64,000 nucleotides of DNA from a virus: the IMG/VR virus record IMGVR_UViG_3300042090_002148. One strand, written 5' to 3'. Positions 1,557-33,385 of the stretch are shown here, piece after piece. Numbering within the stretch: position 1 is the first letter of the stretch; each line of letters starts with the position of its first letter. Under the pieces are notes generated by a model. The model had not been told where the DNA came from, did no database searches, and saw nothing but the letters and a program-made list of their open reading frames with translations. The position numbers and the translations under genes were made by a program.

Positions 1557-2282
1557 ATGCCGAAACCCGAACCAAGTGAGTACGTGACCAGGGACGAGGC
1601 AGCCGAGCTCCTGGGAGTAGGAGCCGACACCATCACGCGGTGGACGAAGACGGGCCGACTTGTGTCGGCTTCGCTCGAAAAGAGCGGGCCCAAGGGAGGA
1701 CGGCCTCGCGTTCTGTACAAGCGGGTGCACATCATGGAGATGGCGACACTTCTCGCCAACGAGCCCGACATGGCGCAGACGCACGCGCTCGGTCTGAGGA
1801 ACGCCGCGTCTGTCTCCACCCTCGAGCGGCGGGTCGACGAGATCTACGACGCCATGGGCCTGGGCGTCGCCTCCCTGCCGACGGACGAGAGCTCTGTCCG
1901 CGCGCTGCTCCAAGAGACCAACTACTCCCCGGACCGACAGCAGCTACGGGCAATCACGTGGGTACGTCTGTGGGGCTCCCGCTTCTTCGGCATGAACACC
2001 TTCTACTTCGAGCTCGCAGAACGAGTGCGACCGGATGCCTGGCAGTGCTACGCCGGCTTTGGGGACCTCATCGAGTACCGCGCTCACGACCTACTCGAAG
2101 AGGTCATCCAGCGCGATCCGGAGCTTGTACGCGCGTACAAGTACCTCGCCGCGGCGAAGCGGCACCTCCACTACCAGAGCTTCATGTACTGCGTGCAGCA
2201 CCACGGCCTGAAGGCGACTGTCGCTCAGCTGGGTCGCCCACCGAACGCCATCGCAGAAGTCTCTGCGCTGCTGATGAACTAG
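1557..2282 (+). CDS. HTH DNA-binding protein (excisionase/MerR-like N-terminus), ~241 aa
   Basis: YVTRDEAAELLGVGADTITRWTKTGRL is a classic excisionase-type HTH; GGAG SD precedes ATG 1557; track ORF 1128..2282 has a spurious N-extension. Confidence 0.75.
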   Translation: MPKPEPSEYVTRDEAAELLGVGADTITRWTKTGRLVSASLEKSGPKGGRPRVLYKRVHIMEMATLLANEPDMAQTHALGLRNAASVSTLERRVDEIYDAMGLGVASLPTDESSVRALLQETNYSPDRQQLRAITWVRLWGSRFFGMNTFYFELAERVRPDAWQCYAGFGDLIEYRAHDLLEEVIQRDPELVRAYKYLAAAKRHLHYQSFMYCVQHHGLKATVAQLGRPPNAIAEVSALLMN

Positions 2283-4138: not shown

Positions 4139-4457
4139 GTTTCCACCGAAGCCTACCCACAACCCTCAAGAGCTGCTGAACAATCTCTGGATGAGCGTTC
4201 AACGCGCCGGCCCGGTCTTCACCGGAGACGCGAACATCATCCCCAAGGGAGACAAGCAGAGCTGCTCCATCTGCCTTGCGCCAGGCACCTTGATGCACGA
4301 GGTGAAGCACGCGCTACGGCGGTACATCAAGGCCTACGCCAAGGACAGCGGCTGGTACTTGAGCGACATCCGCTTCGAGAAGAGCTACCTCGCGTTCTCC
4401 ATCGAGCTCTCGAGCGCAGCATCGAGCTTGTCGCAGAAGCCCAGCGCGAAGCGCTGA
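4137..4457 (+). CDS. Hypothetical protein, ~106 aa
   Basis: Protein-like composition; divergent from terL, sharing the CATG at 4136-4139; 3' end overlaps the convergent gene by 73 nt. Confidence 0.5.
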   Translation: MFPPKPTHNPQELLNNLWMSVQRAGPVFTGDANIIPKGDKQSCSICLAPGTLMHEVKHALRRYIKAYAKDSGWYLSDIRFEKSYLAFSIELSSAASSLSQKPSAKR

Positions 4458-5804: not shown

Positions 5805-8162
5805 TCAACCGGCTGTAAAGGCCAACTGCTGAAGGCCCTCGATCACCTGCTCCACGGTACGCATGGCCTTCTCGAGCGCGGGGATGGGGATGTTCCGCAG
5901 GCCGAGGCGCGCCGCCAAGAGGAGCTCACAGATCTTCTCCTGCGCCTCGTCGATCTTCGGGAGGTACGAGATGAAGACGCCGAGATTCTCTGCGTTGAGG
6001 AAGCCGAGTGAAAGAACCGCGTCGACCGCCGTCGGGTCCGGGATGACGGCGGCCTCCTTCACGAGGTCATGCTTCAGGCTGTTCGCCACCGCGGTGGCAG
6101 GTCCGATCTCCGTGGCCATATTCACCGCGGCCATCTTTGCCTGGAGCGCGCGCGGCTGGATGTAGTGCGCCACGCGCACCTCGACGGGCATGTTGTGGTA
6201 CTCCGCCTCGCCCATCTTCTTCTGCGCGTAGTTCATGTCCACGCCGAGGCCCGCGAGCAGGAAGAGCGTGTCGTCGATGCTCATAAAGGAGCGCTCGTCA
6301 GACGCGAGCTTGTCCACGGGGAAGCCGCTGACAGAGAAGGCCCCACCGCCACCGCGAAGAGTGACGGTCGCGAGAGTACGCTGCGCCTGGGCCTCCTTGC
6401 CGAAGCCCTCGGGCTTCTCGACCAGCGTGGTGTCCTCCGCCTTGTTGAGCGGGAGCCAGGAGAACGTGTCGGGGATGAGCAGGTGGTCACCGTCAGGAGA
6501 CGGCATGACCTTCTGGATGTTCGGCTGCACCGAGACCTGGACCTCGCGGCCGTCGTAGGTGACGCAGTGGAGCACAGCACCGCCGTTCTCCTGGTCGTTG
6601 ACCGAGCCCTTCACGGTCATCGGGATGGTGGCCTCCGCGCTTCCATTCGAGAGGCGGTGGTAGAAGCAGCCCGCGCCCTTCGGTGTGCCCTCGAAGATGC
6701 TGCCCGCCTGGCTGACCGGGATGCCGACGATGTCGCTCTGGACCGCGTACTGGCTGCCGTTGGTGAAGAGCGCGATGGGCAGTGAGGTGCCGTCGATGTC
6801 GATGAGGTTCGGGAAGACGTAGCCGACCAGGTGACGGCCCTTCTCGTCCTGCACCTTGTAGACGCCGAAGCGATCGACGTGCTCCGGCTTGTCCTCCTCG
6901 GGGCTCTCCGGTTCCTCCACCGGCTTGTCGACGACGTTCTTCGGCGCTGCCTCCCCCTCTGCGGGCGGCGGCGAATCCATGGCCATCGTCGCCGAGCCCG
7001 TCTCATCCGCCGCGAGGACGACCTTCCCGCCGAGCAACTTGTAGGCCGTGCCGCGATCGAGGAGCTCCTCTTTCGGTGCCCAGCTGGTGTGCGAGGCGGA
7101 CTTCATCAAGTACCCCTCGTCCACCTTCTGGAGCTGAACCACGCTCGGATGGAGAGCCGCCGCAGCCGCGGTCTTCGGGGTGTACTCCATGAGCGACTTC
7201 AGGGAGTCACCCGCCGAGTTCCCGTTGGCCACGAACTGTCGCTGCAGCCCGACGCTGCTGCCGAGCTTGGCGATGAACGCGTCGTAGTCCTTCTCACTGA
7301 TGGTTGGCAGGATGGACTCGAGAATCGAACCATGCTTGGTGTTCTCGAACCCCTCCGCCAGTCCCGTGGTGATGGCCAGGCGTTTCTTTGCCTGCTCTTC
7401 CTTACCCAAGGCAGAGAGATGAAGGCCCCTCTCCTGGTTCTTGAACCCGCGCTCGGCAACGTCCTCGCCGGCGCGCCGCAAGCGCTCCCGCGTGGTCGGA
7501 TGAGCCCCCCACGACGAATTCCCGCGCGGGCCTGCGTGTACCCAATCGTGTGCTGCCTCCCCTGTGCGTCGAGCAACCTCCTTCACCTTTTGGACGGAAA
7601 TGGCCTCCTTCTCGAGATACTCCTCGAGCGCAGAGCCCTCCTTCCCCATGCCCACGCTCATCGTGGCGCCGCCGCCACCGAAGCCGTAGTTCTGTCGGTA
7701 CGGCGGGTAGAGCTGGCCGATGAGGGACATGTCGCCAGGTCCGCGGCCCGTGATGTCGAACGCCTGAGGGCGGAAGATGGCCTGGCGGAGACGCATCTCG
7801 GTGAGGGGGAGGAGCTTGTTGTCCGCGGTCACCATCAGGTCGAGAGGCTGGAGCTTCTTGTCCTTGATGATGACAGGGACCTTCACCTTCTGAACACCCG
7901 CTGCTTGCAGACCAGCCGGATCTGCACCATGCTGGATCTCAGTCTGATTGGCGAGCTCGAGAGACCCGAATCCATAGCCGCGCTCTCCGTCGACCTTCTC
8001 CATCGTGACCATGGGAGCGAAGTCAGAGGCCGCAGGGAACTGCTTGTAGAGGGCCTGCATGACCTCCGTGGACCACTGGTTCGGATCGTCGCTTAGCGCC
8101 TCCTCCCCACCGGCAGTCTTCTCAAACTCCACGTCGGGCACCAAGAACAGGGGCTGAACCAT
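5805..8162 (-). CDS. Large putative virion/head protein, ~785 aa
   Basis: Start re-placed at MVQPLFLVPDVEFEKTAGG (the track extension is antisense to the HNH gene); multiple KxA motifs; conserved-looking C-terminus DPTAVDAVLSLGFLNAENL. Confidence 0.75.
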   Translation of the reverse strand: MVQPLFLVPDVEFEKTAGGEEALSDDPNQWSTEVMQALYKQFPAASDFAPMVTMEKVDGERGYGFGSLELANQTEIQHGADPAGLQAAGVQKVKVPVIIKDKKLQPLDLMVTADNKLLPLTEMRLRQAIFRPQAFDITGRGPGDMSLIGQLYPPYRQNYGFGGGGATMSVGMGKEGSALEEYLEKEAISVQKVKEVARRTGEAAHDWVHAGPRGNSSWGAHPTTRERLRRAGEDVAERGFKNQERGLHLSALGKEEQAKKRLAITTGLAEGFENTKHGSILESILPTISEKDYDAFIAKLGSSVGLQRQFVANGNSAGDSLKSLMEYTPKTAAAAALHPSVVQLQKVDEGYLMKSASHTSWAPKEELLDRGTAYKLLGGKVVLAADETGSATMAMDSPPPAEGEAAPKNVVDKPVEEPESPEEDKPEHVDRFGVYKVQDEKGRHLVGYVFPNLIDIDGTSLPIALFTNGSQYAVQSDIVGIPVSQAGSIFEGTPKGAGCFYHRLSNGSAEATIPMTVKGSVNDQENGGAVLHCVTYDGREVQVSVQPNIQKVMPSPDGDHLLIPDTFSWLPLNKAEDTTLVEKPEGFGKEAQAQRTLATVTLRGGGGAFSVSGFPVDKLASDERSFMSIDDTLFLLAGLGVDMNYAQKKMGEAEYHNMPVEVRVAHYIQPRALQAKMAAVNMATEIGPATAVANSLKHDLVKEAAVIPDPTAVDAVLSLGFLNAENLGVFISYLPKIDEAQEKICELLLAARLGLRNIPIPALEKAMRTVEQVIEGLQQLAFTAG

Positions 8163-8760
8163 GCCGACAAGCGTAGCAGAGACTTCGACCGCGCAGAACA
8201 ACGAGAAACGATGCACCAAGTGCGGGGGAACAGGACCCTTCAACAAGAAGCCAGGCGGGCGTGAGGGGCTGAACAGCCGGTGTGTGGGCTGCATGTCAGC
8301 CATGACCAAGGCATGGCGCAAAAACAATCCAGAGAAGAACAAAGCCAACAACTTGCGTGGCAACAAACGCAAGCTCGAACTACACCCCGAGAAGTACAAA
8401 GAACTGAACCGCAAATACTCCAAAGAGTGGGCGTGCAATCATCCGGAAGAACGACTACACGCAGCTGCTCGACAGCGCGCCAACCAGAACAACATCCCTT
8501 TCGACATCAAACGTAGCGACATTGTCATCCCCACACACTGTCCGTTGCTCGGCCTATCGCTGCAGAGAAGCGGATCAGGAAGGGTCGAATACAACTCTCC
8601 ATCTTTGGATCGCATCCACAACAACCGCGGTTACGTGAAGGGAAACATCTGGGTCATCTCCCACCGAGCCAACCGCCTCAAAAGCAACGCTACCCTAGAA
8701 GAGCTCGAGCTCCTCACGACCAACCTCCGCAAGGCGCTAAGCCGTCAGGAAGATGGCTGA
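8161..8760 (+). CDS. Free-standing HNH homing endonuclease
   Basis: CTKC/CVGC Zn knuckles; CPLLG...SPSLDRIHNNRGYVKGNIWVISHRANRLK HNH core; A/T-richer than flanks. Confidence 0.85.
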   Translation: MPTSVAETSTAQNNEKRCTKCGGTGPFNKKPGGREGLNSRCVGCMSAMTKAWRKNNPEKNKANNLRGNKRKLELHPEKYKELNRKYSKEWACNHPEERLHAAARQRANQNNIPFDIKRSDIVIPTHCPLLGLSLQRSGSGRVEYNSPSLDRIHNNRGYVKGNIWVISHRANRLKSNATLEELELLTTNLRKALSRQEDG

Positions 8761-9411
8761 CATCGCAGCCGCCGCTGTCGGGTCCTTCGTGATGAGCGTG
8801 ATGCCGGCCACTTCATCCGTAGGAAGAAGCGTCGTAGATCCGAAGGGTCCGCTACCTGTGATGCCGCCGGCGGCGATCATCCCGGAGAAGTCTGACCCCA
8901 CGTCCTGCAGCGTTTCGGTGCCCTGAGCTGGGAAGCCGAAGGCGAGCAGCATCACCGGTCCTGCGGATACCGCTGCGCTGATGGTGGCGATGAGGTCGAC
9001 GACGGGGAGCTTGATGGCGAGCGAGGCGCTGATGAGGGCCTGGATGCCCGCCACCTGTACGCCCAACAACGCGGTCAGCCCAAGGGACGCGGACAGCGAG
9101 GCACTGAGCTGCACCGAGACAGAAGGGAGGCCAAGCGAGAGTACGACGCTGATGCTCGCCTGGATCTGGATGATGGCCTGAAGCTGGGCCTCGAGTGCCG
9201 CTATGGGGTTCGAGATCGAGAGGCCGACGTTCAGCTGGAAGGAGAGCGATGCCTGGAGCTGAAGGTTCAGCGTCACGCCCAAGCTGCCGAGGCCAAAGCT
9301 GCCCGTGAGCATCAGGTCGAACTGCGAAAGCAGCGGCACGATAGCTGTGATGGAGCCGTCGAGCGCGACGTTGATGGCTCCGAGCGGGAGGGCGCCGATG
9401 ACTGTCAGCAT
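8737..9411 (-). CDS. Very hydrophobic Leu/Ser/Ala-rich protein, 224 aa, probably virion-associated
   Basis: Almost no charged residues over ~150 aa; lies downstream of the baseplate spike gene. Confidence 0.6.
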   Translation of the reverse strand: MLTVIGALPLGAINVALDGSITAIVPLLSQFDLMLTGSFGLGSLGVTLNLQLQASLSFQLNVGLSISNPIAALEAQLQAIIQIQASISVVLSLGLPSVSVQLSASLSASLGLTALLGVQVAGIQALISASLAIKLPVVDLIATISAAVSAGPVMLLAFGFPAQGTETLQDVGSDFSGMIAAGGITGSGPFGSTTLLPTDEVAGITLITKDPTAAAAMSAIFLTA

Positions 9412-9995
9412 GTCGGAAGTACTGTACGCGCAGGCGGGTTCAGGAGGTAGCTTGCTGCACGCTGAAGAAGTGCCGGGTCGTCCTTGAAGCGGCCGATGCC
9501 GTTGTTGCAGCTGCTACAGAGGAGGCCGCGCACCATCTTCCGGACATGGTCATGATCCACGTGCCACCTCACTGGCTTTCCATCGCGCAGCAGAGGTTCC
9601 TTACGCCCGCAGATCGCGCAGCATCCTCCCTGCACCCTCTCGAGCTCCTCGTACTGCTCGAGAGTGATGCCGTAGTTCGACATGAGCTTGATGGAGATGA
9701 CGCGTCTAGGGTCTTTCTCTCGTTGTGCCGCGGCGTAGCCCCTCGCACGCAGAAGCTGCTTGGCGTGCTGTTCAGGGTCTTCTTTACGCCGTTGTTCCTT
9801 CGCACGTAACTTCTCAGTATTGCTGCTGCGCCAGACGCGGTCTTGTGCGCGAGCAGCTGCTGCCTTCTCTGGGTGACGTGCGCGCCATCGACGCGTGTTC
9901 TCCGCAAGCGCGGCTCTTCCCTCTGGCGTAGCTGCACGTTTGCGCGCCTGTTCCCGTGCATAAGCACGGCGCTTCTTCGGGTCCTTGATCGGCAC
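9405..9995 (-). CDS. Endonuclease VII-type HNH endonuclease
   Basis: YGITLEQYE..QGGCCAICG..VDHDH..VRGLLCSSCNNGIGRFKDDP. Confidence 0.9.
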   Translation of the reverse strand: MPIKDPKKRRAYAREQARKRAATPEGRAALAENTRRWRARHPEKAAAARAQDRVWRSSNTEKLRAKEQRRKEDPEQHAKQLLRARGYAAAQREKDPRRVISIKLMSNYGITLEQYEELERVQGGCCAICGRKEPLLRDGKPVRWHVDHDHVRKMVRGLLCSSCNNGIGRFKDDPALLQRAASYLLNPPARTVLPTC

Positions 9996-10001
9996 CGTAA
10001 G

Positions 10002-10030
10002 AGCGTATCACCGGTGGTAATCCTAGGCAA
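10002..10030 (-). promoter_or_regulatory. Sigma70-like promoter TTGCCT-17-TACGCT, 6 nt upstream of GTG 9995
   Basis: -35 at 10030-10025 and -10 at 10007-10002 read directly. Confidence 0.6.
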
Positions 10031-11315
10031 GGACGTCTGGGTTCCCTCCAGTGATCGTTCCCAGCACCTTGCCGATGAGCAGGAGGTTCCCTGGCGACGG
10101 GATGATCTGCAGCATCGCAGACACGGGAGTGCCTGGCACAGGAGGCGACTGCAGCGTGATGGCCACCTGCATCATCGGCGAAGCCGCGGTGAACGGCTGC
10201 GTAACGTCGATGGGCGTTGTTACAACGTCACCCTGTCGACCCACTGGCAGTGTCCCCGCGCCGAGTCGCACGACCTTCCCCTTGATGTTCGTGTACGACC
10301 CTCCGTCGATGTCGATGCCGTTCACTGCGGTCACCGAGATGGAGTCCTCACAGGTGAGCGTCACGGTGCCCGTCACATCGAAGGTGAGGTTCTTCGTGAC
10401 CTGGAAGTAGAAGTTGCCGGCGAAGCGTGTGAGCCCGTTACCCTGTCGGTCGAAGGTGAACTTCATCACCGAAGCAGCGACCGCGCCGCTCAGCGCCTCC
10501 CCTGTCTGGGTGTTGAAGCCCTTCGGAGAGACCGTCACCTCGTAGACGATGGGGTTGCTTCCCTTGCCGTCGTCGCCGGCGCCCACACCCGCTGTGCCGA
10601 TGCCGGTCTGGTCGGGCTCAGGGATGGGGTTGGTCACGTAGCCAGAGGCGATCTTGATGTCGGCCGCTGCGTCGTTCGCGAACACCCGCAGCGTCTGCAT
10701 GAACGTCGCCGGGTACTGCGTGATGGAGGGCCCGGTCTGGATGCCCCATGCGATGGTGCCACCAGCGTTGTCGTGCTCGTAGTTCTGGCTGATGTCGATG
10801 ACCTGGTTGTTCAGCGGGATGAAGATGCGCTGCGCGAGCTCGGTGGATCCGATCTGCAGGACGCCGCCTCGACGCAGGATGATGAAGTTGTCGTCGCGCG
10901 TGCGGAACCAAAGGTCCCCGGGGTTGGCCGGAGGGCGCCCACCCGCGAAGCTAGAATCGGTCGAGTTCGCCGCAGGAGCTCCGTGTGAAGAGGTACCCTG
11001 CGGCGCATCGGCCGCGGAGGCATCGACGGTCTCGGACGTCATGACGAAGCACATCACGAACGGTGGCGAGGTGTCGCTCGGGATCGCCACCATCACCGTC
11101 GCGTTGACCTCCGGGATCACGTACATGCCCTCGCCGTTCGAGTGATGCAGGTACGGAGAGCCGACCGAGATGCCCTTGTAGAAGGTGCGGTCGAACTGTC
11201 CCTGGACGTCGACCGTCCAGTTGTTCAGGTTGTAGTTCACAACCTTGCCCTGGACGATGCGTCCCGCGTCGTGCCCCTGCCGACTCGTGAAGGAGGTGCG
11301 AAACTTGGTCGCCAC
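10023..11315 (-). CDS. Baseplate hub/spike protein (gp5/VgrG/gpV-like)
   Basis: N-terminal OB-fold-like GKVVNYN..TVDV..GMYVIPEVNATVMV; beta-strand repeats; C-terminal PVGRQGDVV..GTITGGNPDVLA spike-tip-like end. Confidence 0.7.
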   Translation of the reverse strand: MATKFRTSFTSRQGHDAGRIVQGKVVNYNLNNWTVDVQGQFDRTFYKGISVGSPYLHHSNGEGMYVIPEVNATVMVAIPSDTSPPFVMCFVMTSETVDASAADAPQGTSSHGAPAANSTDSSFAGGRPPANPGDLWFRTRDDNFIILRRGGVLQIGSTELAQRIFIPLNNQVIDISQNYEHDNAGGTIAWGIQTGPSITQYPATFMQTLRVFANDAAADIKIASGYVTNPIPEPDQTGIGTAGVGAGDDGKGSNPIVYEVTVSPKGFNTQTGEALSGAVAASVMKFTFDRQGNGLTRFAGNFYFQVTKNLTFDVTGTVTLTCEDSISVTAVNGIDIDGGSYTNIKGKVVRLGAGTLPVGRQGDVVTTPIDVTQPFTAASPMMQVAITLQSPPVPGTPVSAMLQIIPSPGNLLLIGKVLGTITGGNPDVLA

Positions 11316-11329: not shown

Positions 11330-14300
11330 TCAGTAGTGGTGCGGCGCGACGTCTTTGAGGTGACCTTGCCCTGGAACGAGGGAGTCCTTCTTGGTCAGCC
11401 CGATCTCTGCGCCGAACGCCAGAGCGGGAATGGGATGCGTGCCGTGGATGAGGGAAACACCGTGGACGGCCGCGGCCTCCTGAAGCGTTTCGCGCAGGTG
11501 GTTGTGCTGCAGCTTCGCCATCCAGTCCTCGTGGAGCTCGCGCGGCATGATGTCGATGCCCTTGAGGACCGGGGTGTGCTCGATGGGTGCCTTGCCGGCG
11601 TGAACGAGCTCCTCGTTCATCTTCCGAACAACAGGGAGCGGACGGAACTCTCCACGCAGAACACTGTCATGGTCTCCTGGATCTTCCACGCGGGTGAGGC
11701 TGCCCATCGACTTCACCACCATCTCGATGGCACGGCGCTTGAGGCCCTCGTTCTTGTACAGATCGAAGATGGACTCCGTCAGGTGGTTCTGGACCTTGTC
11801 CATCGAGCCGGTGGCCGCGAAGAGATGGTGCGGGTTCACCACGGTACGGTTCGGATCCGAGAGACGCTGCCCAGCCTCGACCTTCATCCCTACCTTCGGC
11901 GGGAACCACGGCCTGTAGCCGGCGATCACGGAAGCTCCAGGCAGGTTCTCGTGCAGGGCAAAGCCGCCGGCGTCCTTGCCGACGTGGTGCTTGCGCCCGC
12001 CCACGAAGATGTCCACGCCCGTGGCGGTCGGCTGGATCTTGTCGATGGTCCCCGCGGCGCTAGCGATGGTCGCCTGATTCGCGAGCTTCTTCGGCAGCCG
12101 GAGGAGGTTGTCGAAGTGCGCGAAGGCGCTGAGCAGCTTCGAGCCACCCTGCTCGCTGACACCGCCTGTGTGGAAGCTCTTGAGGGTGAGCTGGACTGCA
12201 CGCTCCCCTACGGCATGCGCCGCCTGGATTCCGACGTTCGTCCCGAGCTCGTAGTGCTGTCCCCCGGAGGTGAGGCCTGCGCACTTCTGACAGACGCCGT
12301 GTTCTTCCTCGCACTTCAGCGGCGAGCGCACCACGATGTTGGCGTGCGGGTCGGCTGCACGAATCTTCCCGACGTCTGCCGGTGTGAGCAGCGTGTTCGC
12401 GGGGATGTGTACGTTGCCGTGGTTGAAGTCCTGCTGGAGATAGCGGTCGTGGACGTCGGGCTCGTTGATGCCGAGCGCGATGCCTTCCTTCGTCCCGCAG
12501 TCGTGGCTGTTCACGAGCACGTTCATCATGCTCTGCATCAGCACCTTTGAGAGCGCGCCGGGCTTCTCGACCTCCTGCACCTTCATCACGGCGCCGCGGC
12601 GAGCTCCGTGCATCTGGGTCCAGTAGCTGCCCATGTCGAGCCCCTCGGAGTAGCTCTTCGTGACAGCGTTAGGGATGGGGCGGTCGTGGGCGTCGCGGTA
12701 GATCATCGGAGCCAGGACCATCTGACGGTACTGATCCCATCCAGGCTTCACACCGGCCTTGTACATCGTGAAGAGGTTGCTCGGGTTCTCCTCCTGGCTC
12801 TTCACGTGGAGCGCCTTCATCTCCGTGGCTGCCTCGTTGTACAACGCGACGACCTGGTGGTCCTTCTGCGCTTGGGTGAGCTTCGTGTTCGCCGCGACCT
12901 GCTTCACCTTCTCCTCGATAGGCCGCAGTGCCTTCTCTCGAGAGGCGACGTCCGGCACGAAGTCCTTGAGCGAGAGGGAGTGCGTGGGCATCGGCACGAA
13001 GATGCTCTTGTGCGGGTCGAGCGCGGCGTTGTGTGCTCCTCCCTTCCCGAGCTCGAACGGGTGACCGATGCCGGTGGGCCGTGGCACCAGCACCGAACCG
13101 AAGGCCGCACCGTTGCCGAGGTCCTTGAGCTTGTTCACCGAGCTGTCGTAGCTCGCGGTGTGCTCCTTCGCGATGCGTGTGAGCAGCTTGTCGAGCCCCT
13201 TCGTTCCGCCGTCCTTCGTACCAGCGTTGTCCAGGCGGTACTGCATGTCGTGCATCATGTGCGCCTCGAGGTCAGGTGGCACCGCGCTGGACAGGAGCAC
13301 ACGACCTGGGGTGGTCACACCGCCGGGGAGGTGGACCTGGTCCGTCATCTGGACATGGCCCTTCTGCACTGCGGACAACACCTCCGCCGGGTTCGCGTAC
13401 TTCTTCCCCGTGTCCTTTCCAACCACCGAGAGCTTGTACAGCCCGAGTGCGCTCTCGAGCGTGGGCTGGTACATGCTCTTGCCCGAGGCATCACTGAAGA
13501 GGTTGTTCGAGGGGTACATCTTGCGCGCCTCGGCCTTGGCTGCCTCCGTGATGGGCACGTACACGCTCATCGTGTCGCCGTCGAAGTCCGCGTTGAAGCC
13601 CCCGGTCACGAGGGGATGGATCTTGATGGCGTTGCCCTCGACCGCGCGCGCCTTGAACGCCTGGATGCTGTACTTGTGCAGCACCGGGTCGCGCTTCAGC
13701 AGCACGGGATGGTCCGCCATCACCTTGTCGAGCGCCTTCCAGACCTGCGCGTTCGGCTTCACGAGCAGCGGAGGCGCGTCCATCTCTGCGTGGATGGCGC
13801 CCATCTCCTTGAGCTTCCTCACCACGAAGGGACGGAACAAGTTGAGCGCAGCGTTCTTCGGTAGGCCCACCTCGTCGAGACCGAGCGCGGGCTCAGGCAC
13901 GATGGTGGACCTCATCGACAGGTCCTGACGCCGACTCAGCAGCACGTTCTGGAAGTAGCCATACTTCGGCGAGCTCCCTGCGATGCGGTGGAGGATGCCC
14001 TTCTCCTTGGCGTCTGCGTACGGTGTCCCGACGCCCATGAGCGCCTTGACCCCGTCGTAGTAGTCGACGCGCAGGTCCCGCTTACCGGACTCGAGGATGT
14101 TCTGCTTGATGACCGGATCCTTGAGCTCGTCGTTGACCTTCGCGAAGTCTGAGTAGAGCTGGTTCAGGTCGTCTGGCTTCAGGCTCCCGTCCGGCATCGG
14201 AGTGATGGGGCGCATCACCGGAGGGAGCACGGGCAGGTGGTGCAGGATGTACGCCTCGCTCGGCTTCAGCTTCAGGTCATGAAGCGCGCGCAAGAACTTC

Positions 14301-17300
14301 ACACGCTTCAACGCCGGATCGATCTTCGCCCCTGTCGCGTGGTCTAGTGCCAGCTGCGCAGGGCCGATCTCCTTGCGAACATCCACACGATCGAGGAGCA
14401 GCTTGATGCCAGCGCCTCCGGTGGCGCCCTTGTTAGGGTCGGTGAGCTGTCCGGTAGCGGTCACGCCCTTCTCGCCGTGGACGATGGACTGGAAGTCCTT
14501 CTTGCCGATCTGCGCCACGCTGCAGATGGCCTTCTCGAAGAAGGGGTTGGGCAGCGGCTCGGCGAGCTCGATGTGCGTCCAGTGTCGGCCGCCGTGCCCA
14601 CCGGTAAGGCGCTCGTCGAAGAGTCCGCCGGTGCGCGGCTTGAGCTCTCCCTTCGAGTCGAGCTTCGTGTTGAGACGCTCGGCCGCATGAGGCAGTGCCT
14701 TGGGCGCTAGCTCGAGGACCTGCGCGTCCGTCATCGGGGAGAGCGCGATGCTGTGTCCGACCTTGTCCACGTTCACGCCGGTCGCCCGCAGCATGTCGGT
14801 GAACTTCTGGTAAGCGAAGGTCGGCTTCGGTGGCGGGATGAGCCCGCCCGACTGGATGGCTGCCCAGATCTTGTTGTGGTCGCTCGGCCACGCCTTGCGT
14901 GGATCGGTCTGGGGGTCCACGCCTTCGGACTTGTACGTCTGCATCTCGCGCAGGTTGGCCTTCGCCCCATGCGCCAAGAGCGCGTAGAGATCGAGGCCGC
15001 CGATGGACGGACCACCGGTGCCCGAACCTCCCACCGGCTGCAGGTTCAGGTCATAGCCCTCGGGCTGTGTTCCGGGGATGTTCATCCCACTGCGCACCGA
15101 GAGCTTCTTCTCGACCTGATGCACGAGCTTGAGCAGGTGCTGCGGGCCCACAAGCGCCTTGCCCAGGGACTGGTGCGTATGGGGGTCGAAGAGCTCCTCG
15201 GTGTCCTCGAGACCGTGAGCCTTGAGATCCGCGGTCACTTTCTCGAGCGCGTTGAACTTCGGCTGGAAGTTCTGGACGATGTACGGCTTGCCTGTCTTCA
15301 GTGCGATCTTGCCGGCAGCGGTCTCGAGGACCTGACCCACGTTCATGCGGCCCGGTACACCGGAGGGGTTGAGCGCCACCTCGATGTGCTTGCCATCCTT
15401 CGTGTGGGGCATCTCCTTGTCCGGGAGGATCATCGTGCAGATGCCCTTGTTGCCGTAGCGACCGGCCAGCTTGTCGCCCACCTGCATGGGTTCCACGGTG
15501 CGCACGTGCACCGTCACGCCCTCCTTGGTGTGGTGGACGCCGACGACCTCGCCGTCGAACTCGCTGTCCCACCGCAGACTCTTGTCCACGTGCGCGGCAG
15601 CCATGATCTTGCGGACCGCGGCCATCCCCGTACGGTCCTTGAGCTGATAGGGCTTCATCGCCGTGATGAGCGGGTCGCCTGGCTTGACCGTCTGGCCGAC
15701 GCGGATGATGCCCTTGTCGTCGAGCTTGTCGAACTGCTTGTTGTTGTAGAGCCCGTGGTGCTCCAGCATGAAGCGCTTCTTGTCGAGCACCAGCGTGTCC
15801 TCGAGCGGCAACGAGGGCTTGTGCATGTGTGCGCTGGAGAGCGCGTCTGCGGCGCTCTGACTGATGACGACGCCGTCCTCGAAGTTGTATCCCTTGAACG
15901 GGATGTACGCGACGCGCAGGTTCGTACCGAGCGCCAACACCCCCTTCTTCGAGTAGTTCGTGTCGGCCACCACCTGGTTCTTCTTCACGCGGTCACCGAC
16001 AGCAACGATGGGCGTGGAGTCGAGCACCCCCTTCGCCTCGTTGACCGGGAAGTTGTGGTAGATCTGGACCTCGTGCTTCTCCCCTGTGTCGCTGTGGATG
16101 GTCACGCCATGTGGGGTCACCGCAGTGACCTTGCCGTCCGCCGGCGACGTGTGTGAGGTGAGCCCTCCCATGAGGCGCTCGAACGTCTGACCGCCCTCCG
16201 TGCTGGCTCCGGTGCCCACCTGTACGAGCGCGGGCTCACGGTGCACGAGGGAGATGGCCTGCTCCATGTGACGACTCGCCATCGAGGCGCGTCCACCCGA
16301 GGTGTTCGCCAGGAACGGCAGCAGGTTCGACGTCATGTTGAAGAGCTGGCTGGGGTAGCGAACGGCGTACTGGGCGTCGGCGAACTTCCCCTGCCGCACG
16401 TCGTCCCCACCACCCGTCATCTGGACCATGTCGCTGATGGGATGGGGCTTGCCGTCCACCCAGTGCACCTGGTCAGGCAGCACGATGCGTACCTTGGAGG
16501 CTTCTCCGGGGGACACGAGGTCGTACTTGCCGGTCTTCAGGTTGTAGAGCCGGATGCGCGCCTCACCGCGAGGCTCACCGTTCACGACGTGGTCGACCTT
16601 CTGCAGTCCGAAGGGAAGGCGCAGGGTCACCCCTGTCGACGCGCCCTCGGGGGTGTTGATGGGGTCGAGGAAGCCGAGGTGGCTGGCATTGATGAACTTC
16701 ACCTCGTCCTTGATCTGCCGATCGCTCTGGATGCCGCCGGGTCCCATGACCGTGGTCTGGAAAGATGCGGCCAGCATCTCCACCGGGTTGATCTGAGCTG
16801 CTGGCCCGGCCGCCGCGTTCTTCTGGAACGTCTCGAGGATGGGCTTGTTGAACATCCCGATCTGAACCACGTCACGAACGTTCTTCGCGGCGTTGATCTT
16901 GGCGGAGATCTTCCGCTGGATGACCTTGCGGCCGGCATCGAGGATGCGCTCGTGCGCGAAGTCACCCACCGAGCGGAGGTCCTTGAAGATGAGGGACTCG
17001 CGGTCGTCTTCCTTCTCACCGCCCTGCACCCGCAGGAGCTTCTGCGTGGCGCGCGTGAGTGCGTCTCCTGTGACGTGCTCGAAGGGCTTGCCCAGCGTGA
17101 GCTCCGTGGAGTCGGGCCGTAGCGTGGAGGCCGTCATCATGTCGTAGAAGTGAGCTGCCGCGGCCTCCCTGTCCGGGGCCGCGACCTTCTTCGTGCTCTT
17201 GTAGAAGGTGGCGAGCGCGCTGTCCTTCTTCGCGGCGTTCTTGTTCGCCTCGTAGACCTCCTTGCCCCAGGCCTTCTCAAGTGCCGCGTCGTCGACACCC

Positions 17301-17839
17301 AGCGTCTTCACGAGCTGGTAGAGCGGGATCTTGCTCGCGCTCTTGCCGTACTCCATGTGGAAGACCTTGCTGTCCGGGTCGAAGACGACGTCGAAGCTCT
17401 TGCGATTCTTGATGTTGAAGCGCGTCTCGAGCTCGCCGTTACTGCGCCGCTGCGTGTAGACGCCGGGCTTGAGCTGCCACTGGTTGTTGACCTGGTACTC
17501 CTTGGCGCCGCTGCGCGAGGCCACGATGTACGAGTACCGGTTCGTCATCTTCGGAATGTCGGCGATGCGCATCTTGCGCGAGTCCACGACGGCCCCGGTC
17601 GCGTTGTCGCGCAGCGTGAGGTTGGCGTACACCGGGACGGACCACGTCTCACCGGCGAGCTTGTGCGCGTGCTGGTCGCGGATGTCCGATGGATCCTTGT
17701 CGTCCTTGATGCTCAGCCCGTCGAGGTGGAGTGACTGAGCCTTCCCCTTGATGACGCCATCCGGGAATTGGCTCTTGATCCCCTCGAGCACGCGCTGCTG
17801 GAGGTTCTCGGACGCTTCTTTGGGATCCAGGTAGGCCAA
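11330..17839 (-). CDS. Single-chain DNA-directed RNA polymerase, bacterial-type beta fused to beta', ~2169 aa
   Basis: beta motifs GPGG, TPEG, GYNFED, GDKLAGRYGNKG, LNPSGVPGRMNVGQ, LKLVHQV; beta' motifs HIELA, LPVLPP, NADFDGD (13574-13594), bridge helix HGARRG, CxxC Zn site, trigger loop QLTLKSFHTGG; TTG start at 17839 preceded by GAGGT. Confidence 0.95.
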   Translation of the reverse strand: MAYLDPKEASENLQQRVLEGIKSQFPDGVIKGKAQSLHLDGLSIKDDKDPSDIRDQHAHKLAGETWSVPVYANLTLRDNATGAVVDSRKMRIADIPKMTNRYSYIVASRSGAKEYQVNNQWQLKPGVYTQRRSNGELETRFNIKNRKSFDVVFDPDSKVFHMEYGKSASKIPLYQLVKTLGVDDAALEKAWGKEVYEANKNAAKKDSALATFYKSTKKVAAPDREAAAAHFYDMMTASTLRPDSTELTLGKPFEHVTGDALTRATQKLLRVQGGEKEDDRESLIFKDLRSVGDFAHERILDAGRKVIQRKISAKINAAKNVRDVVQIGMFNKPILETFQKNAAAGPAAQINPVEMLAASFQTTVMGPGGIQSDRQIKDEVKFINASHLGFLDPINTPEGASTGVTLRLPFGLQKVDHVVNGEPRGEARIRLYNLKTGKYDLVSPGEASKVRIVLPDQVHWVDGKPHPISDMVQMTGGGDDVRQGKFADAQYAVRYPSQLFNMTSNLLPFLANTSGGRASMASRHMEQAISLVHREPALVQVGTGASTEGGQTFERLMGGLTSHTSPADGKVTAVTPHGVTIHSDTGEKHEVQIYHNFPVNEAKGVLDSTPIVAVGDRVKKNQVVADTNYSKKGVLALGTNLRVAYIPFKGYNFEDGVVISQSAADALSSAHMHKPSLPLEDTLVLDKKRFMLEHHGLYNNKQFDKLDDKGIIRVGQTVKPGDPLITAMKPYQLKDRTGMAAVRKIMAAAHVDKSLRWDSEFDGEVVGVHHTKEGVTVHVRTVEPMQVGDKLAGRYGNKGICTMILPDKEMPHTKDGKHIEVALNPSGVPGRMNVGQVLETAAGKIALKTGKPYIVQNFQPKFNALEKVTADLKAHGLEDTEELFDPHTHQSLGKALVGPQHLLKLVHQVEKKLSVRSGMNIPGTQPEGYDLNLQPVGGSGTGGPSIGGLDLYALLAHGAKANLREMQTYKSEGVDPQTDPRKAWPSDHNKIWAAIQSGGLIPPPKPTFAYQKFTDMLRATGVNVDKVGHSIALSPMTDAQVLELAPKALPHAAERLNTKLDSKGELKPRTGGLFDERLTGGHGGRHWTHIELAEPLPNPFFEKAICSVAQIGKKDFQSIVHGEKGVTATGQLTDPNKGATGGAGIKLLLDRVDVRKEIGPAQLALDHATGAKIDPALKRVKFLRALHDLKLKPSEAYILHHLPVLPPVMRPITPMPDGSLKPDDLNQLYSDFAKVNDELKDPVIKQNILESGKRDLRVDYYDGVKALMGVGTPYADAKEKGILHRIAGSSPKYGYFQNVLLSRRQDLSMRSTIVPEPALGLDEVGLPKNAALNLFRPFVVRKLKEMGAIHAEMDAPPLLVKPNAQVWKALDKVMADHPVLLKRDPVLHKYSIQAFKARAVEGNAIKIHPLVTGGFNADFDGDTMSVYVPITEAAKAEARKMYPSNNLFSDASGKSMYQPTLESALGLYKLSVVGKDTGKKYANPAEVLSAVQKGHVQMTDQVHLPGGVTTPGRVLLSSAVPPDLEAHMMHDMQYRLDNAGTKDGGTKGLDKLLTRIAKEHTASYDSSVNKLKDLGNGAAFGSVLVPRPTGIGHPFELGKGGAHNAALDPHKSIFVPMPTHSLSLKDFVPDVASREKALRPIEEKVKQVAANTKLTQAQKDHQVVALYNEAATEMKALHVKSQEENPSNLFTMYKAGVKPGWDQYRQMVLAPMIYRDAHDRPIPNAVTKSYSEGLDMGSYWTQMHGARRGAVMKVQEVEKPGALSKVLMQSMMNVLVNSHDCGTKEGIALGINEPDVHDRYLQQDFNHGNVHIPANTLLTPADVGKIRAADPHANIVVRSPLKCEEEHGVCQKCAGLTSGGQHYELGTNVGIQAAHAVGERAVQLTLKSFHTGGVSEQGGSKLLSAFAHFDNLLRLPKKLANQATIASAAGTIDKIQPTATGVDIFVGGRKHHVGKDAGGFALHENLPGASVIAGYRPWFPPKVGMKVEAGQRLSDPNRTVVNPHHLFAATGSMDKVQNHLTESIFDLYKNEGLKRRAIEMVVKSMGSLTRVEDPGDHDSVLRGEFRPLPVVRKMNEELVHAGKAPIEHTPVLKGIDIMPRELHEDWMAKLQHNHLRETLQEAAAVHGVSLIHGTHPIPALAFGAEIGLTKKDSLVPGQGHLKDVAPHHY

Positions 17840-17857: not shown

Positions 17858-17887
17858 AGCGTACCGCGCGGCAGGAAAGCGGTGCAA
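17858..17887 (-). promoter_or_regulatory. Sigma70-like promoter TTGCAC-18-TACGCT for the RNAP gene
   Basis: -35 at 17887-17882, -10 at 17863-17858, followed by SD GAGGT and TTG 17839. Confidence 0.55.
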
Positions 17888-17919
17888 GCAACGTGTGGAT
17901 GCGGGGACAAGGATCTCGC

Positions 17920-18057
17920 ATGAAACAGACACCTAAACAGCCGCCGCCTACGCAAGGAGCTCGCTTCGCGGATCTCATCGCGGAGATGTTCGAGCCCAGA
18001 AAGAACAACGAACAGAAGACAGAAGAAGACGAGAAACGAGATAAGAAAACTGCGTGA
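17920..18057 (+). CDS. Possible small ORF, 45 aa (MKQTPKQPPP...EKRDKKTA)
   Basis: Translated by hand; below the track cutoff; purine-rich; may be non-coding. Confidence 0.25.
   Translation: MKQTPKQPPPTQGARFADLIAEMFEPRKNNEQKTEEDEKRDKKTA
18038..18053 (+). promoter_or_regulatory. GATAAG-box motif copy 1 (GAGATAAGAAAACTGC)
   Basis: 15/16 identical to the copy at 27880; sits at the head of a plus-strand unit. Confidence 0.6.
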
Positions 18058-18723: not shown

Positions 18724-19301
18724 CTCTTCCCCCTGCACCCCGGCGCAACTCGGGCAACAACTGCGCCGACCCTGACTGTGACGCCACGCTGTTCTACGGC
18801 GACGAGGTCGTCCGCATCCAGGTTGTCTTCGCTCAACGCGGAGACGGCGAGATTCTCCAGTACCCAGTTCTCGACGAGGAAGATCCGGCCCGGGACTTCT
18901 TGTTCGAGCCGTACTACTTCTGCATGGACTGCTGGAGCAAGACGTACGAGTTCGCGAAGAGCGAGCTCGCAGATCAGCTGCCTGTGTCCGACGTGCACAG
19001 CGTCTTCGAGTGCTCCTTCTGTGCGAGCGGTATCCGCGAGGTGACGGAGTACGCGGGCGTCGCCGAGATCGGAGAGTTCGAGCTCTCCAAGCGCGCGCCG
19101 GACGGACTGAAGGGGCCGATCTTCGTGGTCACCGCAAAGCCGATGCTCCTCTGCATCAGCTGCCTCCAACTCATCAACGAGGGCTACATCGAGCTCTGGT
19201 CGAACCTTTCACAGAACAACGAGTGCATCGACTGCTGCACCGCGCGTTGCTGGCGCGCTCCCTGTTCCTGTACCTGCCACACGGAAGAGACCCCCGAATG
19301 A
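18708..19301 (+). CDS. Cys-rich putative multi-zinc-finger protein, ~197 aa
   Basis: AAGGAGG SD before ATG 18708; CADPDC, CMDC, CSFC, CISC, CIDCC..CSCTC. Confidence 0.7.
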   Translation: MEPGLTLPPAPRRNSGNNCADPDCDATLFYGDEVVRIQVVFAQRGDGEILQYPVLDEEDPARDFLFEPYYFCMDCWSKTYEFAKSELADQLPVSDVHSVFECSFCASGIREVTEYAGVAEIGEFELSKRAPDGLKGPIFVVTAKPMLLCISCLQLINEGYIELWSNLSQNNECIDCCTARCWRAPCSCTCHTEETPE

Positions 19302-20524
19302 ACCTCAAGCTCATCATGTACATCTGCCTCCTCACTCCCGCGAAGCCCGTCGGCAAGGAGTGGCGCTGGGGCGTTCCTTACCTCCTGATGGGGGCTCCTT
19401 CGACCGCGAAGACCAGCAGCATTATCCAGGTCTGCGAACGCATGCAGGCGCCCAACGAGACGCTGTACCTGAGCACCCACATGCCGGAAGACCTCTCCGG
19501 CATCCCGGTGGTGATGAACGGGAAGGGGCAGCGCGTGAACTTCATGGCCGAGGTCGACGCACTTGCAGCACAGGGCTGCGGAGTCTTGGTGCTGGACGAG
19601 CTCACCACCGCGCGAGAGACCACGCAGAACGCCGCGATGGGGCTCGTCCTCGAGCGCGTGTTGGCTGGAACGAAGCTGCCCAACGGCCTACGCATCGCCG
19701 CCGCCGCGAACCCGCCCGAGCAGGCTGCTGCGGCTCGCGACCTGTCCCTCCCGGCTGCGAACCGCTTCCTGCACTTCGACGTGACGGAGGAGAACCGGCA
19801 GGGCTTCGATGAGACCCTCGAGCGGAGCTGCGCGTTGGCGCGCGGCGAGGAACCGCCGCCCTACACCGAGGAAAACGAGCTCGGCACGCTCAAGGACGGC
19901 GAGAAGATGGTCATGCAGCGCTGGGGTGTGGCGTTGCCGCGTACCTGGCGCCTCGTGAAGCGCTTCCTCGACAGCGCACCCGACCGCCTGACCGTCATCC
20001 CGCCCGTCGGGAACCCTGCGCGTGGCCGCGCCTGGGCCTCCAAGCGCAGCTGGGAGATGGGGACCATGGCGATGGCCGCTGCTGAGGCGCTCGCGCATCC
20101 CGAGTGCAACGCAGACCTTCTGACCGCCGCAGTCGGGGAAGACATCGCAGGCGAGTACATCGAGTTCGTCACCAAGCTGAACCTGCCCCACCCGACGGAC
20201 GTCATCAGCGGCAAGTGGACCCCGGACAAGACGCGCCTCGACACCGCTGCAACCGCGTTCGAGTCCGCGACGCTGTTCATCCTCGGCACCACCGACAAGG
20301 CGCTGCAGGCGCAGTACATCACGGACTACTGGGGCGTTCTCCACAAGGCCGCGGTCAAGCACAACTTTCTCGATGTCGTGCGAGGCAGCATCGAGTCCAT
20401 GGTGCAGCGCGGCTTCGCCAACCAGAGCATCAACCCGGAGTTCCACAAGGCGGCCAACCCCCTGCTCACCGCCTTGGGCGAGAAGTTCCACGAGCACCTG
20501 AACTTCCCGACAGCCGCTCCATGA
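19298..20524 (+). CDS. MoxR-type AAA+ ATPase, ~408 aa
   Basis: Walker A GAPSTAKT, Walker B VLVLDELT, sensor AAANP, arginine finger ANRFLH; ATGA overlap with the upstream stop. Confidence 0.85.
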   Translation: MNLKLIMYICLLTPAKPVGKEWRWGVPYLLMGAPSTAKTSSIIQVCERMQAPNETLYLSTHMPEDLSGIPVVMNGKGQRVNFMAEVDALAAQGCGVLVLDELTTARETTQNAAMGLVLERVLAGTKLPNGLRIAAAANPPEQAAAARDLSLPAANRFLHFDVTEENRQGFDETLERSCALARGEEPPPYTEENELGTLKDGEKMVMQRWGVALPRTWRLVKRFLDSAPDRLTVIPPVGNPARGRAWASKRSWEMGTMAMAAAEALAHPECNADLLTAAVGEDIAGEYIEFVTKLNLPHPTDVISGKWTPDKTRLDTAATAFESATLFILGTTDKALQAQYITDYWGVLHKAAVKHNFLDVVRGSIESMVQRGFANQSINPEFHKAANPLLTALGEKFHEHLNFPTAAP

Positions 20525-21807
20525 CAGACATCAACGAAGCCGAGGCGAAGATCTCTCTCGCGCGTACCATCGTTCGCTCGAAGGGTCCCTACTACTCGAA
20601 GACGATGGCCAGCCTGGTGTTCATGCCCCTCGAGGGCATCAAGACCATGTGCGTGACCACGAACCTCATCCTCGGCTACGACCCGGAGTGGGCGCTCATG
20701 GCGCCCGCGACGGTACTCGCCGCGGACGTTGTTCACGAGATCAACCACTTCATCCGGCGGCATCTTTACCGCATCCCCGGCGGAGACCCGCACCTGAAGA
20801 ACATCGCCGGCGACCTGTCCATCAACCCCGACCTCCTCATCGGAGGTTGGGACTTGGCGGACAAGACCTCGCCACGACCTGCCATCCTGCCGAAGGACTT
20901 CAAGTTCCCCGACGGGCTCTCACAGGAGGAGTACTACGCGCTCCTGCTGAAGGAACAACAGAAGAAGAACCCGAAGCTGCAGGAGATGCTCGATGCGCTG
21001 CGCGGTGGCCAGGGCGGCGTAGGCAGCGGTGCCTGCGGCGGCATCGCCCAGGGTGCGGGGCTCTCCGCTGCTGAGAAGGCACTCGAAGCCATCCCCGGAG
21101 TCGGTCGCTCGAAGGCCGAGATCAAGAACGTCGAGGTCATCGCAGCGAAGCAGATCAAGGACTACGTCGCCCAGAAGGGACGGGGTTCCGTCCCTGAGAA
21201 GCTCATTCGCGATGCAGAGCTCTCCAAGGAGATCTCAAGGATCCGCTGGCAGGACATCCTGTCTCGCGTCGTCCGCACCGCCACGGGGCAGATCACGCTG
21301 GGCGGCGAGATCGAGCCCTCGTACATACGACTCTCACGGCGCATGCAGCCGGAGATGGGCATCATCCGTCCGAGCTACATCACGCAGATGCCCGAGATCG
21401 CCATCGTGCGCGACACCTCGGGCTCGATGGGACAGAAGCAGCTGCAGGACTGCGTGCGCGAGTCCTACGCCATCGTGAAGAGCTTGGGCATCGACGAGGT
21501 CTGGTTCACGGACGCAGATGCTGCCGTGGCAATGCCCTGGCAGCGCGTGAGGAAAGAGTTCTTCGAGAAGCTGACAACTTCTCGAGGGGGAGGCGGAACA
21601 GACTTCGCTCCTGCTATCAAAGACGCACTGAAGCTCAAGCCGAAGCCCGACCTCCTCATCTACTGCACCGACGGCGACGGCTACGCAGGCGACGCCCCAC
21701 GAGGCATGGGCGTCGTGTTCGCTGTCGTCCCGTCCCACTACAACAAGGCCCCCTGCGAGTGGGCCACCACCGTCTTCATCGAAGACCCGGAGAAGAGCAC
21801 GTCGTAG
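20521..21807 (+). CDS. DUF2201-type putative metallopeptidase + vWA domain protein, ~428 aa
   Basis: HEINH (HExxH); MIDAS DTSGS; GGGTDF; YCTDGDG; ATGA-coupled to the MoxR gene. Confidence 0.85.
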   Translation: MTDINEAEAKISLARTIVRSKGPYYSKTMASLVFMPLEGIKTMCVTTNLILGYDPEWALMAPATVLAADVVHEINHFIRRHLYRIPGGDPHLKNIAGDLSINPDLLIGGWDLADKTSPRPAILPKDFKFPDGLSQEEYYALLLKEQQKKNPKLQEMLDALRGGQGGVGSGACGGIAQGAGLSAAEKALEAIPGVGRSKAEIKNVEVIAAKQIKDYVAQKGRGSVPEKLIRDAELSKEISRIRWQDILSRVVRTATGQITLGGEIEPSYIRLSRRMQPEMGIIRPSYITQMPEIAIVRDTSGSMGQKQLQDCVRESYAIVKSLGIDEVWFTDADAAVAMPWQRVRKEFFEKLTTSRGGGGTDFAPAIKDALKLKPKPDLLIYCTDGDGYAGDAPRGMGVVFAVVPSHYNKAPCEWATTVFIEDPEKSTS

Positions 21808-27820: not shown

Positions 27821-27879
27821 AATTCGCTTAGTACTCTGGAACTAAGTGAAAAGCAAACGGCAAGTTAGGCGCGAGCAAG

Positions 27880-27895
27880 GAGATAAGAAACCTGC
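27880..27895 (+). promoter_or_regulatory. GATAAG-box motif copy 2 (GAGATAAGAAACCTGC)
   Basis: Head of the replication block, in a divergent intergenic region. Confidence 0.6.
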
Positions 27896-33369: not shown

Positions 33370-33385
33370 GGGATAAGAGGTCCGC
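33370..33385 (+). promoter_or_regulatory. GATAAG-box motif copy 3 (GGGATAAGAGGTCCGC)
   Basis: In the largest intergenic gap, 33 nt upstream of the helicase ATG. Confidence 0.5.

Follow-up and report, generated by a model that had tools for sequence, protein, structure and literature searches.

The 64,000-nucleotide stretch of IMG/VR record IMGVR_UViG_3300042090_002148 (the window, meaning this whole stretch) is part of a tailed-phage genome, with a terminase (2279-4162), a major head protein (the capsid matched phrog_2522) and, on the plus strand, PolA, DnaB, a primase and RecA. A minus-strand run of virion-type genes is headed by a single uninterrupted open reading frame (ORF), from a TTG start at 17839 to a stop at 11330, in whose 2169-aa product a bacterial-type RNA polymerase's beta and beta' subunits follow each other in one chain. 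From its sequence and fold, this ORF is best explained as encoding the entire catalytic core of a presumably active RNA polymerase of the phage. A Pfam scan recovers domains in the order beta then beta' (Rpb2_3, Rpb2_6, Rpb1_1, Rpb1_2, Rpb1_5), and bacterial beta' chains are the top relatives of solved structure. We mapped residues against Salmonella RpoB and RpoC (1342 and 1407 aa, the same lengths as in E. coli, whose numbering we use): on the beta side E565, R678, Q688, E813/D814, K1065, K1073, R1106 and H1237 are kept, and on the beta' side R425, NADFDGD, the second zinc site, the bridge helix, Q929 and H936. Both double-psi barrels, bearing NADFDGD and the two beta lysines, are recovered by Pfam, alignment and structure model, and the bridge helix, trigger-loop His, clamp, flap and switch regions are all present. 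A preliminary description of this DNA, made from its letters, had proposed a single-chain beta-beta' enzyme with intact catalytic motifs (NADFDGD, GYNFED, GDK..RYGNKG, the bridge helix and the trigger-loop His), and that reading holds for the one 2169-aa ORF.

The join between the two halves is seamless: the final beta strand ends at 14762 and the initial beta' strand begins at 14752, with a three-residue turn between them. The join lies where the preliminary description had sought it (14740-14830), while the first sequence block it quoted (GGPSIGG...) lies earlier in the chain, at 14963-15016. In an AlphaFold2 model, residues 560-1560 (a 1001-aa core) are predicted as one unit (predicted local distance difference test, pLDDT, 87.7; predicted template-modelling score, pTM, 0.80); the junction is drawn as a hairpin turn inside this well-predicted core, which on structure comparison resembles bacterial beta and beta' chains. 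An assembly artefact is ruled out because a contig of an independent wetland run bridges the junction, spanning 14216-15100 with zero differences, and because 80 of 81 aligned homologs share one junction length. Exact matches to pieces of the gene occur among RNA contigs of two wetland metatranscriptomes, but as such contigs do not tell transcripts from carried-over DNA, they are not taken as proof of expression.

Table 1. Features of the window discussed in the text
Feature	Position	Strand	Remarks
Single-chain beta-beta' RNA polymerase	11330-17839	-	2169 aa
Beta-like half, aa 1-1026	14762-17839	-	without i4, i9 and i11 inserts; rifampicin-pocket residues replaced
Beta/beta' junction, predicted beta-hairpin turn	14752-14779	-	equal length in 80/81 homologs
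Beta'-like half, aa 1030-2169	11330-14752	-	clamp zinc-binding domain and SI3 both absent; second zinc site retained
GYNFED motif (E813/D814 equivalent)	15875-15892	-	
Flap-tip helix	15608-15640	-	diverged sequence, low local pLDDT
Beta double-psi barrel lysines (K1065/K1073 equivalents)	15443-15478	-	
H1237 equivalent	15116-15130	-	
Beta' zinc-binding domain deletion site	14597-14626	-	short Gly-rich loop in place
Clamp helices, aa 1224-1267	14039-14170	-	modelled docking site of phage sigma region 2
NADFDGD catalytic loop	13574-13594	-	
Bridge helix start	12593-12625	-	
Trigger loop	12161-12190	-	Q929/H936 equivalents kept
Co-oriented virion gene, weak baseplate-protein match	10023-11315	-	14 nt downstream of polymerase; adjacent in Pendulispora element too
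Candidate phage-sigma promoter, CAA-N16-GGGACAAG	17885-17911	+	divergent from polymerase gene, heads AAA/vWA operon; 8/10 loci
Candidate sigma-A-type late promoter of polymerase, TTGCAC-N18-TACGCT	17858-17887	-	overlaps divergent -35; weaker inference
Second complete phage-sigma promoter	27861-27887	+	heads helicase/replication operon
-10-only match	33370-33377	+	before DnaB-primase-PolA operon; another at 18038-18045
Terminator-like site: hairpin, T-run, TTAGC	46640-46672	+	end of replication block

The chain is 580 aa shorter than Salmonella RpoB and RpoC together (2169 against 2749 aa), in keeping with the several hundred residues by which the preliminary description had judged it shorter than the E. 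coli pair. The saving consists of lineage-specific inserts (beta i4, i9 and i11, beta' SI3 and part of the jaw) and of the beta' clamp zinc-binding domain, a conserved bacterial element that is deleted and replaced by a short Gly-rich loop; SI1 is also missing relative to the bacterial enzyme. Among 255 long homologs, 213 carry the signature of the zinc-domain deletion and two the four-Cys pattern. In the rifampicin pocket, Q513, D516, H526 and R529 are replaced in the chain and variable across the family, from which we predict a polymerase insensitive to rifampicin. Both losses had escaped the preliminary description. Its view that the flap tip and clamp coiled-coil are retained is right for the folds and fails for the residues: R275, R278, R281 and E295 on the clamp helices, the sigma-70-binding residues of E. 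coli, have become V, E, D and L in the chain and are mostly non-bacterial across the family, so that the docking surfaces point to a phage sigma rather than to that of the host.

The family to which this chain belongs is large, with members in the hundreds. IMG/VR holds full-length single-chain relatives of 50-95% identity, some on contigs of 160-189 kb, and in a 90% clustered database 971 proteins, cellular fusions perhaps among them, match with an E of 1e-50 or better; all of the 120 matches listed from this set are long single chains. Among the best 150 representatives at 50% clustering, with identities down to 38%, almost every one is a single chain, either 2000-2100 aa long or extended by inserts. 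Many homologs reach 2400-4700 aa, and those with Pfam data carry LAGLIDADG (PF14528), probably inteins. Three genomes served for comparison: a 183-kb sister genome (G001), colinear with the window at 85-89% nucleotide identity and used as a stand-in for the window's own genome, and two independent ones (G002 and G003, the latter record 88% complete) whose polymerases are 54% and 61% identical. Each of the three has one copy of the polymerase. The closest cultured phages, at 31% identity, are Vibrio phages D69, D181 and D148 and Salmonella phage Arash; a homing endonuclease is annotated within the match in the D181 and D148 genes. Arash and D69 have the same junction, though their beta' is divided after the catalytic loop, and the beta' tree places both of them nested within the family. 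The family-wide single chain and its constant junction argue, on comparison of the sequences, that the beta-beta' fusion is old and conserved in this phage family, and the nesting suggests that the split in Arash and D69 is probably secondary. A 1502-aa split form of the Arash type, with the same junction, occurs in IMGVR_UViG_2791354756_000002, whose identifier looks like that of an isolate genome and offers a second possible host link.

In both the beta' and the concatenated trees, the family and the bacterial enzymes lie on opposite sides of a branch with SH-aLRT support of 100; the family itself has a support of 90 in the beta' tree, or 100 with one fragment. Constraining the family with Pendulispora and a deltaproteobacterial metagenome-assembled genome (MAG) is rejected by the approximately unbiased (AU) test (p-AU 6e-61), which bears out the earlier proposal of a deep-branching enzyme rather than a recent host capture. 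Split-gene phage enzymes of mReC-like size form a separate branch, a joint clade with them being neither favoured nor rejected (p-AU 0.07). These trees come from a quick LG+G4 search with five bacterial lineages and without archaea or deep bacterial phyla, and a single row from nucleocytoplasmic large DNA viruses enters the beta' tree alone. Uneven composition was flagged in them, and their deepest branchings are provisional. The NCBIfam scores lie below the equivalog cut-offs (rpoC 412 against 963.5, rpoB 296 against 801) and below those of the fusion models (459 against 5372, 413 against 4632).

In both trees the nearest row to the window chain is a chromosomal copy in the cultured myxobacterium Pendulispora rubella (CP089983.1). 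There, at about 9,115,000-9,244,400, lies an element of at least 127 kb with a terminase, capsid (77% identical), sheath, tape measure, sigma and a single polymerase gene, the called start of which is about 100 aa too late. The element adjoins a tyrosine integrase and a tRNA-Met and has unrelated genes inserted; PolA, DnaB, primase, RecA and helicase had no match in it, and no att repeats were found around it. We read it as a decayed prophage of the polymerase lineage. No tyrosine integrase was found in G001, G002, G003, Arash or D69, and the family polymerase occurs in none of 400 other Myxococcota genomes searched. Myxobacteria have few known phages, and this prophage is evidence that the sub-clade of the window chain infects them; the host of the window phage itself is a separate matter. 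DNA of the window is present in wetland, soil and peat runs. Members of the family have also been binned in a Bacteroidales MAG (DAOQAF010000001.1, a 204-kb contig that is probably a whole phage) and a Deltaproteobacteria MAG (JAKPDW010000082.1).

The preliminary description had recognised no alpha, omega or sigma gene. The window indeed has no sigma of the family described here, and Pfam scans of its larger ORFs showed no alpha or omega; for sigma this is an effect of the window's edge, as the lineage encodes a FliA-like sigma. In G001 it is a 279-aa product of the tail cluster, matching Pfam Sigma70_r3 below the cut-off (E 1e-4). Its structure model (pLDDT 86) has the helical domains sigma-2, -3 and -4, and the 49 Foldseek rows listed for it contain sigma-70-family chains only, led by SigD, SigA and SigB and including WhiG. 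Its identity to Arash gp10 is 35% over 128 aa, it has 74 homologs, and a search of five other records with the polymerase found it in every one. G001, G002 and the Pendulispora prophage each have a single sigma of this family. A 94% identical copy (P0210) comes from sample ERZ27249951, which also holds a protein identical to the window polymerase, both entries giving 187,301 bp as the length of the longest contig. The FliA subfamily models gave no match, with weak SigB/F/G matches only, and Pfam Sigma70_r2 and Arash gp196, used as queries, did not match the G001 protein; this sigma would work like sigma-28, yet we do not assign it to FliA. Sigma70_r4 matches in G001 were rejected as a sigma, since they belong to an HNH/helix-turn-helix (HTH) protein. 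G002 has, besides the conserved FliA-like sigma, a sigma resembling the extracytoplasmic function (ECF) type (a 194-aa frame) and a further Sigma70_r4 match, at 127294-127812 and 145450-145602.

A model of the sigma in complex with polymerase residues 680-1330 scored 0.65, against 0.00 for the best control, and places sigma residues 36-79 on the clamp helices. Solved complexes attain the mark it passes in 58 of 80 cases, mismatched pairs in 2 of 110; the runs agree in at least 61% of contacts, with a partner pLDDT of at least 66. As sigma and core are a textbook pair, the pass may reflect likeness to solved holoenzymes.

The sequences ahead of the genes suggest what such a holoenzyme would read. 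In G001, the motif G[GA][GCA]A[TC]AAG occurs 6-7 nt before ribosome sites (14 instances against 2.5 in shuffles), with CAA 16 nt upstream, and one site precedes the sigma operon. Since it was defined on G001, we tested it on two other genomes, and the peak at spacer 16 recurs in G002 (19 of 91 sites, p 7e-12) and G003 (13 of 57, p 2e-10). The consensus of 46 sites is GCAA-N16-GGGATAAG. In Arash, the 133 kb examined hold 22 GGTATAAG sites, of which 21 are on the non-structural strand and one precedes the gp9-gp10 (sigma) operon; the -35 there is looser than GCAA. With the 15-nt spacer of sigma-28 promoters and the shared GATAA cores aligned, GCAA-N16-GGGATAAG falls in register with TAAA/GCCGATAA. 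The latter are the -35 and -10 of the flagellar consensus (PMC8325347). The window holds two complete sites against 0.16 expected, both heading plus-strand non-structural operons. TCTTAGC was dropped as a -35 element, its distance to the -10 varying from 28 to 39 nt.

At the polymerase gene itself, a complete motif site points away from it in eight of ten family loci. The operon so headed in the window encodes a MoxR-like AAA ATPase and a DUF2201/vWA partner (19298-21807, plus strand), which occur also in G002, G003 and the Pendulispora element. On the other side, nine of ten loci have a TAnnnT 8-25 nt ahead of the start of the polymerase, against 25 of 201 genes, whereas a scan with the generic sigma-70 consensus found nothing upstream of the polymerase gene. 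That the overlapping -35 elements in the window form an early/late switch is a speculation. At the other end of transcription units, in G001-G003, AGC follows 20 of the 50 sites that combine a hairpin with pyrimidines, as against 52 of the 1060 remaining tracts (p 1e-12). This enrichment is real in the sub-clade and weak or absent in Arash, and its reading by the phage enzyme is a candidate function. Terminator-like hairpins with a T-run and TTAGC lie at 24728/24752 in G001, 155292/155318 in G003 and 46659 in the window, on both sides in bidirectional cases.

Two further features concern the virion genes. Two endonuclease VII (HNH-type) genes, likely mobile, lie within virion operons (9405-9995 and 27317-27820, both minus strand). 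Proteins of the head cluster repeat (E/D)K(T/V/L/I)A(S/A/G), up to four times each (G001 112353-136515 and 153441-154883; window 288-1508, 5805-8438 and 25607-27298), and the sigma begins with a similar stretch. The repeat may be a signal for a protease or for packaging; outside the catalytic motif, no clear copy is seen in the polymerase.

We propose the following course of events. The polymerase would be made late, from the virion operon, packed in the head together with the FliA-like sigma, and delivered with it to the cell at infection. There, sigma region 2 would dock on the clamp helices, and the holoenzyme would read GCAA-N16-GGGATAAG, about 6 nt before the ribosome site, ahead of the sigma operon as well as of early, accessory and replication genes. 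A different, sigma-A-like promoter may serve the late genes, including that of the polymerase, and these may depend on the host enzyme. We regard this scheme of late synthesis, packaging, injection and early transcription by a virion-delivered phage holoenzyme as likely; the pairing with sigma, the packaging in the window phage and the timing are inferred, not observed. To the complete model, namely a two-protein holoenzyme free of alpha and omega, injected from the virion, insensitive to rifampicin, with its own sigma-28-like promoters and with stops at hairpin-U-UUAGC achieved without the zinc-binding domain, we give a probability of roughly 40%.

Several points weigh against it. The beta segments that touch alpha in bacteria are retained, if partly changed, so that alpha binding would still be possible. 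The G003 record has promoters but no sigma. The window's own genome very probably encodes the sigma, a conclusion drawn from its relatives rather than read from its letters. The Arash virion proteome comprises 116 proteins, many of them metabolic enzymes, and its authors allow for carry-over from the lysate (PMC10585845). The Arash chain is 31% identical to ours and Arash has a second sigma, gp196, not found in G001-G005. The activity and start sites of the enzyme are predictions.

To our knowledge, every cellular multisubunit RNA polymerase assembles on an alpha-like dimer, and the cellular beta-beta' fusions of Helicobacter and Wolbachia keep alpha. The most serious alternative, unlikely as we hold it to be, departs from our model in the alpha step only: with the same sigma and promoters, the chain would still need a borrowed host alpha dimer, and perhaps omega, to fold or work. 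The chain is far closer to the bacterial enzyme than those of phiKZ and AR9, and the segments that face alpha, at 1080-1090 and 1209-1232 in beta and at 520-550 in beta', can be aligned with the bacterial ones. A change of beta DGRTGE to DPHTHQ, once considered as a loss of the alpha site, was dropped as undiagnostic, given that Mycoplasma RpoB also has Pro at 1215 and half of the family keeps Gly. In the 81 aligned family rows, D1084 is E in 61 and G1218 is kept in 41; E1083 and R1216 are, however, unconserved and Y1087 is mostly replaced. Further, neither alpha nor omega gave a family match above the cut-off in any of five genomes (G001, G002, G003, Arash and D69), with positive controls detected, and in the window neither was seen in the Pfam scans of larger ORFs to which the check there was confined. 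The hosts of the family, as distant as Myxococcota and Gammaproteobacteria, also speak against a borrowed subunit, as do the jumbo-phage RNA polymerases, which function without alpha (PMC7598289). From the sequences, we lean slightly to a chain that works without alpha, in which the fusion would probably take over the assembly job of the alpha dimer.

Delivery from the virion is the step questioned by a second and more improbable alternative, in which transcription of the polymerase and sigma genes falls to the host enzyme once entry has taken place, leaving the phage holoenzyme to serve middle genes alone. The sigma-A-like TAnnnT before the polymerase would suit this course, as would the temperate relative, which must start from host machinery on induction, and the possible carry-over in the Arash proteome. 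Yet the polymerase gene stands first in a virion operon, with the sigma placed in the tail cluster; the motif precedes small-gene clusters typical of early regions; and Arash virions contain Gp206, Gp216 and the sigma Gp10, with Gp206 giving the most spectra of all virion proteins (PMC10585845).

Phage sigmas that steer the host core are common (PMC7824862), and a T4-like or SPO1-like use of the sigma, with the big chain serving late transcription or priming instead, might be entertained. We consider this very improbable: the sigma accompanies the polymerase in all five other polymerase-bearing records searched, the clamp positions for binding host sigma-70 have other residues throughout the family, the phage core gives a passing complex model (subject to the likeness noted above), and a DnaG-type primase is encoded separately. 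The copies in the Pendulispora chromosome and two MAGs might recall a recent capture of host rpoBC, a dead relic or a mis-assembly, of which the first and last are already refuted and the whole is next to negligible, in view of the branch of support 100 and the rejected grouping with Pendulispora and the MAG, scores far under the rpoB and rpoC cut-offs, a chromosomal copy set in a phage element beside an integrase and tRNA and absent from the 400 other Myxococcota genomes searched, and the contig that bridges the junction.

Two-barrel polymerases of phages, forms in a single chain and fusions in cells have each been known before, and the window family differs from all of these in particular ways. 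Closest is the Arash lineage (Gp206, Gp216 and sigma Gp10; OQ632216; PMC10585845) with Vibrio D69/D181/D148, which is of the same clade and shares the junction, the zinc-domain deletion, an orthologous sigma in the tail cluster, a related -10 motif and genomes of 180-187 kb; its differences are the 31% identity, a chain cut after the catalytic loop (1525 + 606 aa) and the second sigma. The Arash paper, in the part accessible, annotates 'beta' and 'beta prime' and lists both in virions, with the fusion, promoter and mechanism not described there (PMC10585845). The mReC enzymes (Weinheimer and Aylward 2020, PMC7481178) are likewise deep-branching, alignable, bacterial-like beta and beta' with NADFDGD from tailed phages, and their length and contig criteria (tailed-phage contig, alignable beta and beta', NADxDGD, at least 800 aa) describe the window chain too. 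All rows examined, however, have two separate genes, often two sets per genome, with capsids matching PF07068; hence the suggestion that the lineage may already be catalogued does not hold for mReC as far as is testable. Of five split-gene phage enzymes taken as stand-ins for mReC by their size pattern, which fall on the other branch, four keep the zinc-domain signature.

With bacterial RNA polymerase and sigma-28 (FliA/WhiG/SigD), our system shares fold, domain order, catalytic residues, docking on the clamp helices and the register of a two-part promoter. From the bacterial enzymes, including Helicobacter and Wolbachia RpoBC, it is set apart by an identity of about 30%, scores below all NCBIfam cut-offs, a separate branch, the lack of any alpha or omega gene found, the absence of the zinc-binding domain, SI1, SI3, i9 and i11, and the changed rifampicin pocket. 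The phiKZ and AR9 polymerases are also two-barrel enzymes without alpha and omega, one set being virion-borne (PMC7598289); they have 4-5 chains, two sets, no recognisable sigma-70-family factor and short weak matches only to the window chain, whereas the window family has one chain, one copy and a sigma. YonO, crAss-like gp66 and the P23-45 polymerases also have both barrels in one polypeptide, yet align poorly to cellular subunits (PMC7481178), while the window chain aligns over nearly its full length; this distinction is by description only. Our literature search, which covered few subscription papers, found no paper on a fully alignable bacterial-type one-chain core with its own sigma-70-family factor, and nothing relevant on a fused phage beta-beta', mReC with sigma or the Pendulispora prophage, in agreement with the earlier expectation that the mechanism is uncharacterised.

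Finally, the jumbo-phage enzymes that lack alpha have diverged too far to reveal its replacement. As the window chain aligns residue by residue with the bacterial core and is accompanied by a real sigma, it would allow a direct test of whether alpha, omega and the zinc domain are dispensable; with a sigma and a promoter consensus available, and Arash as a cultured member, such a test needs two genes. If working, the two-protein system would be a compact orthogonal expression tool. If our reading is true, this would be the smallest sigma-dependent bacterial-type polymerase known to us, orthogonal to that of the host. Most likely, a large uncultured wetland phage thus brings a ready transcription machine into the cell, in the form of a polymerase paired with its own flagellar-type sigma and promoters.

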